NCBI GenBank assembly: GCA_951406725.2
Contig: OX597817.1
Location: forward strand, 130,262,001 to 130,326,000
Length of the DNA stretch: 64,000 bases
DNA from: Octopus vulgaris
Taxonomy: Eukaryota
Reading direction: 5' to 3'
Below are positions 155 to 63,078 of this stretch, piece by piece. Below the pieces are notes generated by a model, which saw only the letters and a program-made list of their open reading frames with translations, did no database searches and had not been told where the DNA came from. Position 1 is the stretch's first letter; each line of letters opens with the position of its first letter. Both the position numbers and the translations under genes were made by a program.

Positions 155-862
155 AAAGAAAACTGAGAATACATACACAGAATAATCAATTCATTTACTA
201 TCATAGTCCAGTCGAATTAATGAATTCATTCATATTGCCTACGCTGCGTTTCGGTTGATTGCTTTTATCCATATTTACACATTTAAACTGCCTTGTGAAG
301 CTGCAAAAAGCAATATGCCTTCTCAGTGCAAATTAACTGATATTTTTCATATCCTAACGGATGGAGAGTTTATTCCGATTGAACTGTAGCCTGTGCATTT
401 TGGGTTCTGTTCTAAAAATAGCTAGATGTTGATTTTGACCTTACTGGGGATGTGATAGACATAGTTCAGAAGAACTAAGTCATGTTATTATTCACTCTTT
501 TGGCAGTGCCGATTAACCAAGAGTGAATAATAACATGACCTGGTTCTGAACTATGCCTATCCTTTGTCCAGTAAGGTCAAAATCAACCTCTAGCTATTTT
601 TAGTACAGAATCCAAAACGCACATGCTACAATTCAATCGGAATAAACTCTCTATCCGTTAGGATGTGAAAAATATCAGTCAATTTGATCTGAAGAGGATT
701 TTGCTTTTTCTCAATTTCATAAGGCACTTTAAATGTGTAAATATGGATAAGAGCAATCAACTGAAACGCAGCGTAGGCAATATGAATGAACTCATTAATT
801 CAACTGGACTATGATGATAAATGAATTGATTATTCTGTGTATATATTCTCTGTTATCTTTGT
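155..862. repeat. Imperfect ~350-bp-arm fold-back element with a degenerate HHR in each arm
   Basis: Arms are reverse complements around ~500-518 (gtcatgttattattcactctt / aagagtgaataataacatgac; gcctacgctgcgtttc / gaaacgcagcgtaggc). Right arm has CTGAAGA 689-695 and GAAA-cgcagcg-TA 763-775. Confidence 0.85.
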
Positions 863-910
863 ATTGTTATAAATTGTGTGTGTGTGCGAGCGAGCGAGTT
901 TAACCATAAG

Positions 911-958
911 AGCCACTGACGAGCATTAATCAAATGCAAAATCACTGATGATCTGGCT
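911..958 (+). ncRNA. Type I hammerhead ribozyme motif with core G12 mutated to A
   Basis: agcca-CTGACGA-gcatt(aatca)aatgc-AAAA-tca(ctga)tga-TC-tggct; all three stems pair, GAAA reads AAAA. Confidence 0.7.
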
Positions 959-1256
959 ATGCCCCGGATGTAGGGCATTTGTCAGTCAAAATGATAAGTG
1001 CTTTCTATGGCAATGAGTCATTTTGACCCTCATTTCTAGCAATACTGGTACTGATTGGTGTCCTTGCTCACTTTAGTGACGTCTATATTTCTGCCTTTCG
1101 GTTTTAAATTACTGATAAGCCACTTTTACTGTATATGTGCGTATGTGTGTGTATATATATATATGCATATACATATATACATGCATTCATATATATATAT
1201 TATATATATATATATATATATATATATATATATATATATATATATATATATATATG

Positions 1257-3175
1257 TCTGTAATGCAAGCCATATGCTACAAATGTGTCCCAGAGAGAAA
1301 AGTCACTGTACACAAGAGCAAAATCTCCAGAGAAAGGAAAATTCTAATGAGACGGCGTACAAAAGTTTCAAATCGCCTAAACAAACAAATTGAAAGCAGT
1401 GAAAAGTACCGCCCGAAAATAAAACTGTTGGAAATTGAAAAATGTCTGCAACTCTCCCATGAAAAAGAAAGACCAGACAAAGAAGCCTGGGCTATAGACA
1501 ATATAAAATCTAACCCCAGAGCTTTCTACAGGTATGCCAAAGAAACAGCTACAGTGCACTGTAGGATAGGGCCGCTCCTTGAAAAGGATGGCACACTCAC
1601 AGGAAATCCAATGAGGGTAAGTGAAATACTAAATGAGCAATTCAAGAGTATTTTCACTCCACCCCTAGGGCATTTTCAAGTCAGCAATCCAACTGACTTC
1701 TTTACCACTGTAGATATAAAATCAGAGGCAGCGATGATTGATTACATCAATGTAAAGGAAGACGATGTAATAAAGGCTATTGATGAAATGAAAACAAACT
1801 CAGCTACTGGCCCCGATGGATTCCCAGCAATCCTTCTAAAAGTATGTAAGAGAGCCCTAGCAAGACCACTGCAGTTCCTCTTTCAGAGCTTCCTTGCAGC
1901 TGGCAAACTTCCAGGAAAACTGAAGGAAGGTAAAATATGCCCTATTCATAAAGAAGGTAGCAGAGCGGAGGCCAAGAACTACAGACCTATCTCTCTGACC
2001 TCACACATCAGCAAGGTCATGGAACGAATAGTCAGAAGGAAACTAATCACCTTCCTTGAAGAAAATGACTTGCTGCCTGACACCCAACATGGTTTCCGAC
2101 CAGGAAGAAGCTGCTTAACTCAGCTCCTACAACACTATGACTGGGTGCTGAAACGACTGCTCAACCACTCAAATGTGGAAATGATATATCTCGACTTTGC
2201 AAAGGCCTTTGATAAAGTCGATCATGGAATGATATGTCACAAACTGCGTGATCTTGGCATAGTTGGAAAATTGGGAGAATGGCTTCATGACTTTCTGAAG
2301 GATAGAAGTCAGGTAGTAGTAGCCAATGGGGCCACTTCCACTAACACGCAAATAGTGAGCGGTGTTCCGCAAGGCACTGTTCTGGGACCACTACTGTTCA
2401 TAATGGCCCTCTCAGACATGCCCTCAGCCACGCAGAGAGCCACGATCACAAGTTATGCAGATGATACAAAAGTTTCACAGGCAATACAGAACCCTAAAGA
2501 CAATAAGTACCTGCAATGTGAGCTGGACAAAATATACAAGTGGGCTGAAAAGAATAGCATGCAGTTCAATGCTGAAAAGTTTCAAGCTTTATACTATCAG
2601 CATGCAAAACTAAATGCAATACCCAATAAATACAGAAGATAGCCTCTGTGCAGCATATAAGCTATTGGGAAAGACTCAAGAGATTGAGACTCTATTCCTT
2701 AGAGCGTAGGCGAGAAAGATATGCCATAATATACATCTGGAAGATCCTAGAAGGACTTGTCCCAAACCTTGGCATCGAGAGTTACACAAATGCCAGAACT
2801 GGGCGCCACTGCATAGTGCCAAGGACTTCAAATTTGCCATCAAGATGTAGGACAAGATACTGTGATAGCCTGGGCTTCCGAGGCCCACAGCTCTTCAATA
2901 TCCTCCCGAAGAACCTAAGAGACCTGCATGGGGTGGATGCAGATGTCTTTAAAATGAAACTGGATCTCTTCTTGTCAGGTTCCCAGATGAACCAACTTCA
3001 CGGCAGGAGGTGCAGATGAGGGCAGCTGCATCGAACTCTCTCATGCACCAGATGGCATTTGCTAAAAAGCATTCGTGAAGTAAAATCATGTAGCAACACC
3101 AAATGGCGGTGCCCCAGCATGGCCACAGCTTGTGAGCTGAAACTAAGTAAAATTTTTAAAAAATAAAAAAATAAA
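1257..3175 (+). mobile_element. 5'-truncated CR1/L2-group LINE (RT domain, internal deletion near 2640, 3' UTR)
   Basis: RT motifs GPDG, NYRPISLTS, QHGFRPGRSC, YLDFAKAFDKV, GVPQGTVLGPLLF, YADD; C-terminal SYWERLKRLRLYSLERRR; starts directly after (TA)n and ends in an A-rich tail. Confidence 0.92.
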
Positions 3176-60520: not shown

Positions 60521-61879
60521 TAAAACTCGCACTCTGTGCGGACTTTTAAGCTACCTCCTGCGGAGGGCTAATTGAGTCTTCGGCCCAAAACTGCTGAGAG
60601 CAATAATAATAAAAGATTTATTCATATCTTACCATCTCAGATTTATATCACAGAGTATCACATTTGGAGAATTTTGTATCACCGTGACATTCGGAGATCA
60701 CTATAAAGCAGCAGGATGAATAACATTCTTGGTTGACAAACAGAATGTCGCATTTATCAAGCTTTGATCAGTTTTCCGACACAGAATGTCGCGTTTACTA
60801 TTATGGCTAACGAAGGTAACGATTGTAAATCGCTTGAAGCTTCTCACGGTCGCTTTATCTGCTGGAAATAGCAGCCCAAATGCTCTTACATCAGATTCCA
60901 ATGCTGGAGGTTCAAGAACCAAATGAATACCAAATTTTCAATCATGGGATCATCCTGATTCCAAAAAGGTATAATATGTCTATGCAGAGCAATTGTAGAG
61001 TTAGATACAGGGGCAGACGGAATTTTACTTTTATATATATATGTGTGTGTGTGTGTGTGTGTGTGTGTGTGTGTGTGTGTGTGTGTGTGTGTGTGTGTGT
61101 GTGTGTGTGTGTGTGTGTTTATATACATACATACATGCATACATACATACATATATGCATACATATATGCATACATATATGCATACTTATTCCTCTATCA
61201 CCCTTTTTTTATCACGTAGTTGGGTTCTCGGAAGATATATTGTAACAAGTCCCAAACAATTTTTCATCTGTGTGTAGCTCTATTTGTCCGTGCAATTACT
61301 GCTCGTTGGTTAGTTTACTAAAAGCTAGATGACAGTGAAAGTCGAGTGTCTACTTAGCTAAATACGTTTGTTTGATGTGATTTTTGTGAGTTACTTAACC
61401 CTGTTCTATATTTATTATATAGCTAATGATGCAGCTCCAAAAGTTATTGTCAATTATTTATTGAGTACTTTGGGGCATTATGCCCCAAATTAGATCCATG
61501 AGAATATTTTGCATTCAAGAAATATAAGAAAAATCATACTCGTACTCTTCCCCTCTCTCACTCTCTCTCTCTCTCTCTCTCTCACACATACACTCAAACA
61601 TGTATGTATATATGTATATATAGTTATATAGTTATATGCATATATGTATGCATATAACAATATATATATATATATATATGTGTGTGTATGAATAAATATA
61701 TATATATATACATATAAATATATACACGTGTGTACATATAAATTTCATATATGTGTGTGTGTATGTATATATATATATATATATATATATATATATATAT
61801 ATATATATATATATATATATATATATATATATATATATATATATATATATATATATATATATATATATATATATATATA

Positions 61880-62765
61880 TATATTGGGGCGACTTCTTCT
61901 GAATTATCCCAGAGGATTTCCAGTCATTATTCAACTTTCCGAGATAAGAGAAAACAACAAAGTACAGGACTAAGTAAATTAGTTTGGCGTCTTAAGGACA
62001 GCAATATAACTTTCAAGCTGGAATGGTCCATATTATCTGTATCCTTTCCTTTTGATAAGGGCAGAAAATATTGCGGCGTCTGTAATTCCGAATTTTTCTA
62101 TATACTTTTCGCCAAATTCCCTTTGGTAAACACAATGGTAGAAAAATCCTATAGGTGCATGCACTGGCAGAAATACACCTTCCACTCATATGAATGATGA
62201 TTAATATAGATAACCTCCTTGAATTTAATAATTTGGTTCCACTTCTACAACACCATATGCAGTCTTCGAAACATATGTCGAGAATAAAGGAATTTTGTTA
62301 AATCGTCGTTTGACTCCATTCTTTCATTTATTTATATATATATACATATATATACATACACACACATAGGCACTCAATCTCATTAGCAAAAGCAAACAAC
62401 AACGCATCACCATACATACCACTTGCACTCTGTTACCCTCCTATTCTTAGAACTTTCCCCTTCCAACCATTTTTAAACTCTTGAACTTTTTAGAATCTTC
62501 TCCATCCAACCAATTTTGACGTCACTGCTTATAACAGAATTTTTTAAAGAAACACTCATTATCACTATGGACTCCGTGTGGGCAGTCATCTAAAAGTTTT
62601 TGTTCGTCATGATACTGACATAAGTTCCTTGTCTTTCCTGATGAGAAGGCGACATAATGCACCCTTTATTCCTTCGGAATTAAGAATATGCAGTCTTCGA
62701 AACATTTGTCGAGAATAAAGGAATTTTGTTAAATCGTCGTTCGACTCCATTCTTTCATTTATTTA
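61880..62765 (+). mobile_element. 3' end of a Penelope-like element: GIY-YIG C-terminal part plus pLTR-like repeats
   Basis: YIGAT...[10 protein letters not shown]...[12 protein letters not shown]...WSIL...CGVCNSE...VN...CMH (resembles Naiad-type EN, inference); direct repeat 62256-62334 / 62686-62765. Confidence 0.8.
62622..62727 (+). ncRNA. Type I hammerhead ribozyme in PLE 3' region
   Basis: ttcctt..tttc-CTGATGA-gaaggc...gtcttc-GAAA-catttg-TC-gaga..aaggaa; the upstream half copy has palindromic catatg. Confidence 0.8.
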
Positions 62766-62919
62766 TATATATATATATATATTTATTTATATATATATAT
62801 ATATATATATATATATATATATATATATATATATATATATATATATATATATATATATATATGTGTGTGTGTGTGTGTGTGTGTGTGTGTGTGTGCGTGT
62901 GCGTGTATACATATACATA

Positions 62920-63078
62920 TAGTTTAAATTTACTGAAAAACAAAAGATGAAGACAGGTGTATGAACAACAAGCAGGTGAATTAGGTTGACGCTCGGGAAG
63001 TGAGAAAGTCTTTTACGTTTCAAGCCTACGCTCTTCAACAGAAAGGAATAAGGGAGAATGAACAAAGACAGAATAAAA
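62920..63078 (-). mobile_element. Short minimal-HHR repeat copy
   Basis: cttt-CTGTTGA-a-gagc(gtag)gctt-GAAA-cg-TA-aaag at 63010-63045. Confidence 0.65.

Follow-up and report, generated by a model that had tools for sequence, protein, structure and literature searches.

The hammerhead ribozyme (HHR) motifs of the Octopus vulgaris window (the whole 64-kb stretch of DNA that was analysed) are, judging from their sequence context, probably footprints of Penelope-type retrotransposition. Thirteen of the 23 listed sites represent 3' ends, either fold-back or 5'-truncated, of enzyme-encoding Penelope-like elements (PLEs), whose families join a GIY-YIG ORF, and nine lie in ORF-less tandem units of 534, ~440 and ~340 nt, likely copied in trans. 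An earlier, sequence-only reading of the window had pictured an ecosystem of autonomous PLEs and non-autonomous passengers; both components were found, yet the 13 sites are ordinary PLE ends, and a picture of this kind has been published before, for corals, mussels and frogs.

Scanning for type I hammerheads with a strict descriptor, which demanded an exact core, at least 3 bp in each of stems I and II and a palindromic or hairpin stem III, gave 10 HHRs in the window, against none in any of 20 block-wise dinucleotide shuffles and none in the reversed window, which bears out the high motif density reported earlier; a previous, tighter descriptor gave 5 matches. When one core mismatch was tolerated, the window had 15 matches vs. 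0 to 2 in 8 shuffles, the two at 53467 and 53700 having low scores and being probably due to chance. As for the 23 sites, 10 pass the exact scan and 13 the one-mismatch scan, the 10 failing the latter being decayed copies or core variants common to a whole family. All 23 are homologous to a family ribozyme region, although for three families the reference was taken from the window itself, where it matches itself by construction. The density of strict matches (10 in 64 kb, half of them from one array) is above average, the comparison being 7 in a sample of 200 kb taken as 20 fixed stretches of the genome (2.2 per 64 kb), which suggests, with wide uncertainty, exact-core hammerheads on the order of 100,000 genome-wide. 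Rfam did not report the hammerheads of the window: none was found at the gathering score, and none at E ≤ 1 among the best 150 of 191 rows, those rows being microsatellite artefacts. The 2026 octopus repeat annotation does not mention hammerheads either.

The roughly 20 motifs had been ascribed to many unrelated families; the motifs stand, but the families are fewer, the 23 sites grouping into 10 repeat families, with five sites (18682, 25649, 44864, 45367 and 63010) in a single one, F1. Three further matches, at 15145, 19793 and 20683, belong to F10, a family absent from the earlier list, and in the last two the 5' core half is missing. The type I topology was borne out, with a conserved core and the three stems arranged as in type I: the core is canonical in F2, F3, F4, F5, F6, F7 and F9, the first stem II pair is mismatched in F10, and F1 and F8 each differ from the canonical core at a single position. 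In F1, 27 of 30 loci carry a U at position 6 (the query used to select the loci has this U itself), and F8 has a C at position 9, so that the cores of two ORF-linked families are non-canonical. Across 10 family sequences, 73 of 80 first stem I and II pairs form, vs. a mean of 38.2 with partners swapped (73 reached in 0 of 5000 swaps); this stem evidence consists of partner swapping across families and counts of pair changes, rather than phylogeny-aware covariation statistics. Together with compensatory changes in stem I of F5 and of its sister lineage, it agrees with the expected stem covariation. The reported proximity to TA-rich microsatellites amounts to a modest enrichment overall, with (TA)n at most 300 nt away from 16 of 26 motif sites (10.1 expected, p = 0.015).

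The features of the window are listed below. The labels Neptune-, Poseidon- and Hydra-like are provisional and motif-based rather than tree-based, coming largely from a comparison of EN and linker motifs with those described in the text of PMC8557442.

146..869, both strands: F6 fold-back insertion, Hydra-like PLE 3' end, two arms with decayed type I HHR (227-341, minus; 674-788, plus)
907..1125, plus: F9 copy, ORF-less ~340-nt tandem family, HHR core 916-953, G12 changed in this copy
11130..11330, plus: F7 copy, HHR from 11204, ~60-nt loop II
15145..15244, plus: F10 relative, 70%, absent from the earlier list
18674..18734, minus: F1 minimal HHR, 3' end of Neptune-like PLE
19793..19883, minus: F10 5'-truncated copy without first core half, absent from the earlier list
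20134..20617, both strands: F3 fold-back, arms 100% complementary, 3' end of young Hydra-like PLE, HHRs 20196-20269 (minus) and 20482-20555 (plus)
20683..20773, minus: second 5'-truncated F10 copy
24396..24860, minus: decayed PLE-type RT fragment (third coding fragment), broken frames, tblastn 23% to P0091
25630..25693, minus: F1 copy
31818..32390, both strands: F2 fold-back with (AAT)n spacers, Poseidon-like PLE 3' end, HHRs 31924-31959 (minus) and within 32264-32343 (plus)
32049..32157 (approximate), both strands: F2 tRNA-like segment, two truncated inverted halves at the fold-back centre
44866..44908, minus: F1 copy, 3' part lost
45362..45418, minus: F1 copy, core 45371-45398
49241..49924, minus: UTR/pLTR of the young PLE-A, variant HHR F8 at 49351-49420 (core A9 to C), ending at (TA)n
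49925..51403, minus: PLE-A ORF, RT-GIY-YIG, 5'-truncated, 492 aa open; inverted arm 51382-51789
51961..53184, both strands: F4 ORF-less ~440-nt unit, tandem plus inverted arm, three HHRs at 52106-52167 (minus), 52460 (plus, stem III deleted) and 52909-52970 (plus)
55068..57717, both strands: F5 array, 534-nt ORF-less unit, (TA)n at both ends; four minus-arm HHRs (55255-55324, 55789-55858, 56323-56392, 56857-56926) and one plus-arm HHR (57358-57427)
61886..62330, plus: Hydra-like GIY-YIG C-terminus (stop at 62197), then 3' half of F3b HHR
62621..62730, plus: F3b HHR copy, F3 relative, stem III palindrome with one change
62921..63078, minus: F1 copy, core 63014-63041

The three PLE coding fragments noticed earlier are thus present (49925-51403 with its inverted arm, 61886-62197 and 24396-24860), and the genome also holds the autonomous elements that had been postulated, PLE-A having an intact open frame of 1,312 residues in locus L491. 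PLE-A combines RT with a GIY-YIG at the C-terminus in one ORF with an HHR-bearing pLTR downstream, the domains being read from motifs; Pfam and PDB sequence searches assigned its protein to no recognised family, and Pfam gave GIY-YIG in locus L040 at E 0.068 only. Its tandem period is ~4.6 kb, and all 40 scored copies are 100% identical over 386 nt. Downstream of the ORF, the equivalent of 49241-49924 is present in all 12 printed F8 copies, which were retrieved with the PLE-A ORF-end query. A link to a PLE ORF was found in six of the 11 families seen. Same-strand EN lies upstream in 5 of 30 F1 loci and in 8 of 30 F6 loci (L153, L159, L165, L167, L170 and L177 among them), the F6 arms forming an 87% inverted repeat. 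For F3, EN was found in 6 of 30 loci when inverted arms are included (upstream in L099, L112 and L114, on inverted arms in L100, L110 and L120), and most of the 30 F2 loci, chosen by an upstream motif, carry it. PLE-type anatomy (partial tandems, an inverted truncated arm and a one-sided tail) recurs in the genome. Concerning F7 and F10, the upstream walks gave 4 matches vs. 2 in the control, with no EN, for the former and no adjacent EN in 25 loci for the latter. F10 was also considered as a tandem retrozyme and rejected, since its 657-nt triplet in L483 contains flanking (TA)n and unique DNA and is therefore a local duplication.

In F2, a tRNA-like A/B-box segment precedes the ribozyme inside an autonomous Poseidon-like PLE, 29 nt after the stop codon; the family was at one time taken for a free-standing ORF-less SINE, which was rejected once the upstream motif search exposed ORF-linked loci. 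This tRNA-like stretch aligns collinearly with a tRNA-Arg found in the octopus genome itself, A- and B-box positions included (z 7.3, the best of 27 distinct tRNAs). Aragorn scored the F2 head at a relaxed threshold only, which 41 of 300 shuffles also reach, and cmscan of locus L082 gave no tRNA match; the tRNA-related 5' head with A and B boxes that short F2 copies share with tRNA-derived SINEs is accordingly weak by the one program and absent by the other. Twenty-four of 30 sampled copies begin at this segment, within ~10 nt upstream of its first base, and 15 of 30 ORF-side copies extend at least 300 nt beyond it. Counted by eye, loci with both arms have one long and one short end ~40 nt apart in 28 of 29 cases. 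One copy in 30 ends at the ribozyme cleavage site.

The intact-core pattern of the 534-nt unit, F5, has 2,219 matches genome-wide vs. 0 for the reversed control, and its copies, 98-100% identical, describe a young family. The sampled loci were picked by best score, which favours young multi-unit arrays; they hold at least two consecutive intact ORF-less units, each with a single type I HHR, as in non-LTR retrozymes, and up to 14 ribozymes head to tail. In all 32 arrays, no ORF was found at inner ends or from one unit to the next, the searches covering 1.5-kb flanks with a small query set. Insertions take the form of two divergent tandem arms in (TA)n: in 24 of 25 two-armed arrays one arm ends around monomer position 290, its counterpart at about 160-190, the same end occurring twice in none and one array being irregular. 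This use of a different start site by each arm is the two-start signature of PLEs, and fits rolling-circle copying. The visible ends of 19 of 19 arrays adjoin (TA)n or TA-rich runs (read by eye), vs. only one of 30 F2 copies at the 3' end (also by eye), so that the proposed target preference does not extend to all families. Just one inner end among 32 arrays lies at the ribozyme cleavage site.

In the window array, five variants are shared by every unit that covers them, on both arms, and a 26-mer with one of them has 8 matches genome-wide, 5 of which are inside this array; array-private variants fixed on both arms were also found in L392, L400 and L388, for example. SNP distances are 0.45-0.51% within arrays and 0.93% between arrays, and L384 is a mosaic, unlike the mostly single-haplotype F5 arrays. 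Long-read assembly can homogenise tandem units, which bears on array uniformity. A stem I pair scored in 108 units is T-A in 100, C-G in 7 and unpaired in 1, and a sister lineage, 75% identical and circularly permuted, has a different 7-bp stem I (read by eye); such compensatory changes suggest selection on the ribozyme fold. Two F5 ribozymes are predicted to co-fold as a double hammerhead (-49.4 vs. 2 x -20.4 kcal/mol), and a circular monomer is predicted to be 65% paired (z -6.8 vs. 40 mononucleotide shuffles). Among the listed entries carrying the unit there is no RNA record, which is uninformative on expression, and contigs cannot show circles.

The sister lineage, a short-loop F5 variant, was tried as the parent PLE, but has no ORF in the three loci read and is thus another ORF-less lineage. 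As for the other tandem families, F4 and F9 units also lie head to tail, mostly as partial or decayed units, the F9 direct repeats being spaced ~330-343 nt apart in L485-L488. A Poseidon fragment directly upstream of F4 in L134 (= L381) was rejected as the F4 ORF; it belongs to F2 and was read as a neighbour. In the search for a helper of F4 and F5, no similarity to the ends of the ORF-linked families of the window was found, and a hairpin motif common to both gave no ORF-linked locus in 30 fetched of 384 matches. ORF-less ribozyme passengers, as the sequence-only reading had foreseen, exist in three unit lengths beside the solo pLTRs.

In the mechanism that we propose, a PLE RT-endonuclease would nick AT-rich DNA, and cDNA would begin at two fixed sites within the RNA, one for each strand of the target. 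The two cDNAs would usually halt early and leave short divergent arms. Since the ribozyme is just upstream of the start sites, these arms would still contain it. The F5 template is likely an RNA circle, formed by dimeric hammerhead cleavage of tandem transcripts followed by ligation, and copied several times round; many F2 templates may well have started at the internal Pol III-type promoter. That two such routes are live in the octopus, a 534-nt ribozyme circle copied by rolling circle from two start sites and Poseidon-born Pol III SINE-like copies in the thousands, is a tentative and rather doubtful proposition.

Several other explanations bear on these steps. Chance matches in AT-rich fold-back DNA would agree with the 10 sites failing the one-mismatch scan and with the silence of the Rfam models, but the empty shuffles, the conserved cores and paired stems of the family majorities and the F5 pattern count against its reversed control already refute this reading, to which we give practically no weight. 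It is also very improbable that every family, the 534-nt one included, is the solo or tandem pLTR of an ordinary PLE, no lineage spreading without its own ORF. This does hold for the six ORF-linked families; F7 and F10 have no ORF link in the loci searched, and F2 itself seemed ORF-less over its first 30 loci (one ORF-side arm, L065) before the upstream motif search. Against it stand the F5 runs of up to 14 ribozymes with nothing between units, and the circularly permuted sister lineage, likewise ORF-less.

PLEs could have made the 534-nt arrays from uncut linear read-through transcripts of existing arrays, with an idle ribozyme and no circle, which we regard as possible though unlikely: the anole PLE used mainly unprocessed RNA in vitro (PMC11167929), the mosaic L384 exists, and a uniform source with an uncut multimeric transcript would also yield uniform arrays, the scarcity of ends at the cleavage site fitting uncut RNA and a circle equally. 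The private variants fixed on both arms (in L392, L400, L388 and the window, for example) and the compensatory stem changes of F5 and its sister lineage speak against this. For F2, the chances come close to even that the 5' pile-up is an RT stop or snap-back at a palindrome, with no Pol III start and all copies derived from full-length PLE RNA. The head does fold back shortly at a small palindrome in 9 of 30 copies, no diagnostic position splits the 24 head-start from the 30 ORF-side copies (variants are shared and shift in frequency only), and the tRNA scores are those given above; on the other side are the tRNA-Arg collinearity, the contrast between the head-start and the longer ORF-side copies, and the sense strand, where T runs do not exceed 3 anywhere between the head and the 3' end.

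In the literature, the movement of animal retrozymes is still a hypothesis, with PLEs called strong candidates. A young family of 2,219 cores, two mapped starts and intact PLE ORFs in one genome make it testable by the existing in vitro PLE assay. If true, the F5 route would be the first genomic footprint tying animal retrozyme circles to Penelope target-primed reverse transcription (TPRT), and F2 a SINE that arose within a Penelope element and is mobilised by it, the element having captured a tRNA promoter in the pLTR; a short, tRNA-headed element driven by a PLE would make a third SINE-helper pair besides LINEs and LTR elements.

In the available part of Cervera and de la Pena (2014, PMC4209133), where the octopus is not mentioned, PLE pLTR hammerheads are likewise of type I with helix III palindromic or absent, have an extra unpaired base before stem II (as F1, F2 and F8 here), and occur as many families per genome, mostly in solo or inverted truncated copies with few full elements, as here. 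Compared with that text, six octopus families have 30-60-nt loops II and 6-7-nt palindromes, and F1 and F8 carry core changes at positions 6 and 9. Partial tandems, an inverted 5'-truncated arm, a one-sided tail and AT-rich or (TA)n targets are shared with known PLEs (Craig et al. 2021, PMC8557442; Frangieh et al. 2024, PMC11167929), whose traits include a bias for TA, truncated arms in inverted orientation and a one-sided tail (PMC8557442), the tail being defined by two internal RT starts and insertion in vitro not requiring cleavage (PMC11167929). As in the anole Poseidon element PAc (PMC11167929), the two RT starts of PLE-A are located downstream of the HHR and inside the start of the ORF. 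For Chlamys (MRC1), head-to-tail non-autonomous derivatives have been reported, mostly without canonical HHRs (PMC8557442; PMC11167929); in contrast, it is ORF-less ribozyme units that follow the octopus rule, with a single start site for each arm. This rule, and the tRNA-like segment in a Poseidon-type PLE, are what the octopus data appear to add. The schistosome SINE-like hammerhead retroposons, reviewed by Weinberg et al. (2019, PMC6765202), have a Pol III-type promoter and then a hammerhead, like F2, whose short copies nevertheless insert with PLE arms and a tail, not as tandem satellites, and whose tRNA-like segment sits inside an autonomous Poseidon-like PLE.

Metazoan non-LTR retrozymes (Cervera and de la Pena 2020, PMC7229834; Li, Clavereau and Pollet 2026, 10.64898/2026.07.22.740005), which reach more than 6,000 HHRs in 16 families in coral, resemble F5 in having ORF-less tandem repeats in which each unit has one type I HHR, in their low GC content, in a circle predicted to be self-paired and in their co-existence with PLEs. 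Their PLE dependence was deduced in these papers from co-occurrence and pLTR similarity, whereas the F5 insertions themselves show PLE anatomy (divergent arms, two starts, TA target). The F5 unit of 534 nt also exceeds the usual 170-400 nt (51-972 in 10.64898/2026.07.22.740005), and its tail is ~100-130 nt vs. 30-40 in published systems.

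A strict type I hammerhead ribozyme (HHR) descriptor recovered 10 exact-core motifs in the window vs. none in any of 20 block-wise dinucleotide-shuffled controls, so that the HHR density proposed by the sequence-only reading is real. With one core mismatch permitted, 15 motifs were found vs. 0–2 per shuffle (n = 8 shuffles). Among the 23 HHR or HHR-like sites listed in that reading, 10 pass the exact descriptor and 13 its one-mismatch version, and all 23 show homology to the ribozyme region of a family, partly by construction. Rfam recognised no hammerhead in the window, either at the gathering score or among the at least 150 matches listed by E-value. 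Hammerheads are a genome-wide feature, not confined to the window: the same scan gave seven exact motifs, mostly dissimilar to the window families, in 20 fixed 10-kb stretches of the 2.8-Gb genome (2.2 per 64 kb), and none in 92 kb around tRNA genes. The density in the window is about 4–5 times that of the sample, one array contributing part of the excess. Five loci of this 200-kb sample (L526, L528, L537, L540 and L544) carry additional exact-core hammerhead families, mostly absent from the window. The window is also rich in microsatellites and other repeats.

Other features of the window
1254–3019 and 46465–47834: non-LTR retrotransposon reverse transcriptase (RT) fragments (RVT_1)
5504–6043: non-LTR retrotransposon RT fragment
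8263–8325: short tRNA-like fragment, found by eye
11653–12142: 184-nt tandem repeat of a common SINE-like element, which also occurs at about 7800, 27600 and 46035
13527–15147: Tc1-like element whose terminal inverted repeats measure 229 nt, its transposase lying in two frames

Similarity searches within the same genome grouped the 23 sites into 10 families and added one overlooked family, F10; several families thus exist, as had been claimed, but not about 20 separate ones. Each family search scored only 40 candidates, so copy numbers are lower bounds skewed towards close copies. Stems differ between families yet pair, with 73 of the 80 first stem I/II pairs matching in the majority sequences vs. 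38.2 with partners swapped, F3b being left out as it did not parse. In F5, the family of 534-nt units, one stem I pair is T-A in 100 units, C-G in seven and unpaired in one, and both alternative letters occur in all four sequencing runs compared. These two sets of counts favour covariation of the stems. For stem III and its closing pair, intermolecular pairing can be complete or nearly so in nine of 10 families. Since the core has a U at position 6 in 27 of 30 F1 loci and a C at position 9 in F8, some hammerheads of these types may, judging from the core, be poor ribozymes.

Most HHR sites of the window (13 of 23) are ends of Penelope-like elements (PLEs), as F1, F2, F3, F3b, F6 and F8 are joined to PLE coding sequence. 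A GIY-YIG endonuclease (EN) remnant lies upstream in 5 of 30 F1 loci, 6 of 30 F3 loci (in three cases on an inverted arm) and 8 of 30 F6 loci, and the F3b half-ribozyme immediately follows an EN ending at 62197. F2 is connected to a Poseidon-like EN; clade names are provisional labels, based on a comparison of motifs with those described in PMC8557442. F8, the ribozyme of the element PLE-A (49241–51789), follows the ORF at 49925 in each of the 12 copies listed. PLE-A is very young (100% identity over 386 nt in 40 of 40 scored matches), and in an intact copy (1513–5448 of locus L491) the open frame runs to 1,312 residues, the tandem unit around it being about 4.6 kb long. This frame contains a long Asn/Ser-rich insert, its protein was unrecognised by Pfam and PDB sequence searches, and the two 3' ends of the element are about 55 nt apart, within the start of the next ORF. 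As for the longest PLE frame of the window, its best database match is an Octopus vulgaris protein (97% identity).

Much of this has precedents. Hammerheads of PLEs, retrozymes that probably travel as PLE passengers, and genomes with many such families are all in print (PMC4209133, 10.64898/2026.07.22.740005, PMC11167929, PMC8557442, PMC7229834, PMC6765202, PMC10886601, PMC6962438 and PMC13282606 taken together), and short solo or inverted remnants of the PLE terminal repeat (pLTR) bearing variant hammerheads are described in PMC4209133. PMC13282606 assigns 6.83% of the O. vulgaris genome to Penelope-like elements of 190 families; in a term search that included its supplement, none of the words 'ribozyme', 'hammerhead' and 'retrozyme' turned up. 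The hammerhead system is real and largely of a known kind, plus two sharper features, the F5 anatomy and the tRNA-like head of F2, with which an open mechanism becomes testable.

Nine of the 23 sites lie in head-to-tail repeats devoid of an ORF, namely F5, F4 (about 440 nt) and F9 (about 340 nt); it is very unlikely that the families are all solo pLTRs, and ORF-less ribozyme passengers of the kind that had been proposed are present. Intact F5 cores gave 2,219 matches and the control none; a single array contains as many as 14. Of 32 arrays read fully or partly, 25 have two divergent arms and seven a single one. In 24 of the 25 two-armed arrays, monomer position 290 is the approximate end of one arm and 160–190 that of the other, the latter being imprecise as the boundary merges into TA; one array is irregular. 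All visible ends adjoin TA runs (19 arrays), and inner ends are scattered, with only one in the 32 arrays hitting the cleavage site. Units diverge by 0.45–0.51% inside arrays vs. 0.93% across arrays; variants are fixed on both arms in several arrays, including that of the window, and array L384 is mosaic. In a sister lineage of about 75% identity, stem I is a different run of 7 bp, the two ends are the same, and three of three loci lack an ORF. A double-hammerhead fold is predicted for two F5 ribozymes, and strong self-pairing for a circular monomer. A short hairpin common to F4 and F5 separates the two end sites in each and is a candidate signal for enzyme binding; the 30 of its 384 matches that were inspected yielded no ORF-bearing element containing it.

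PMC8557442 describes PLE insertions that have truncated arms in inverted orientation, a tail on one side and a TA bias, and PMC11167929 the tail as the stretch separating two internal RT starts. We infer that a single enzyme complex would nick both target strands and prime at both sites, so that each arm has a start of its own. On a full-length PLE RNA template, early RT stops would produce short fold-backs like those of the window; an ORF-less circle would have no template end, so that each arm could run several laps and keep the haplotype of a single molecule. An RNA circle is the likely template of F5; nearly the same arrays would arise from a linear multimer left uncut, if its source were uniform. 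In the literature covered, which included few subscription papers, no PLE start-site anatomy was reported for retrozymes.

Concerning F2, the order is stop codon, 29 nt, a segment of 75 nt containing A- and B-box positions, (AAT)n, ribozyme and two ends. Among 27 distinct tRNAs of the same genome, the segment aligns best with tRNA-Arg (z 7.3; others reach 2–7); Aragorn and cmscan at normal thresholds did not call it as a tRNA. Exact patterns, unequal in length and ambiguity, gave 10,513 matches for the 3' end, 3,654 for the head and 536 just upstream. In the first 30 head matches of contig C1, 24 end at most about 10 nt upstream of the first base of the head, nine of these with a short fold-back, and the remaining six extend to the ORF side, three resembling one duplicated block. 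Half of the ORF-side copies (15 of 30) extend at least 300 nt, and the longest T run on the sense strand is at most 3. Pol III starts would explain this pile-up of 5' ends, and so would a small palindrome at the head if RT stopped there; no diagnostic base distinguishes short from long copies. Within the same literature no tRNA-like promoter in a PLE pLTR was reported, although Repbase may list these families. The same rule as in F5, here one long and one short end, holds in 28 of 29 F2 loci with both arms scored. Only one of 30 copies adjoins (TA)n, so F2 has no (TA)n preference; the target preference supposed to be shared fits the F5 ends but does not extend to F2.

Several minor observations were made. 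F3, F4, F5, F6, F7 and F10 have loops II of 30–60 nt containing 6–7-nt palindromes; among these long-loop families, the two that are linked to an ORF are Hydra-like, and tails tend by eye to be long in long-loop families (about 75–155 nt), a pattern that hints at a Hydra-like helper PLE for F5. Changes private to one F5 unit lean towards G>A when read along the RNA sense strand (among 41 changes, 17 are G>A and 5 are C>T; p = 0.053), on both arms (L384–L403, window 55068–57717 and others); RT error or cDNA deamination could produce this bias, assembly error being a further possibility. At 55781–56848, minor contigs have clustered T>C at 13 places in run X6 and A>G at eight in run X2. Double-stranded RNA from fold-back arrays would acquire such changes by A-to-I editing, provided that these presumed-RNA runs are RNA. 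Finally, the 534-nt unit occurs in sequencing runs of five organisms from eight studies, and may be common to related octopus species or to differing labels.
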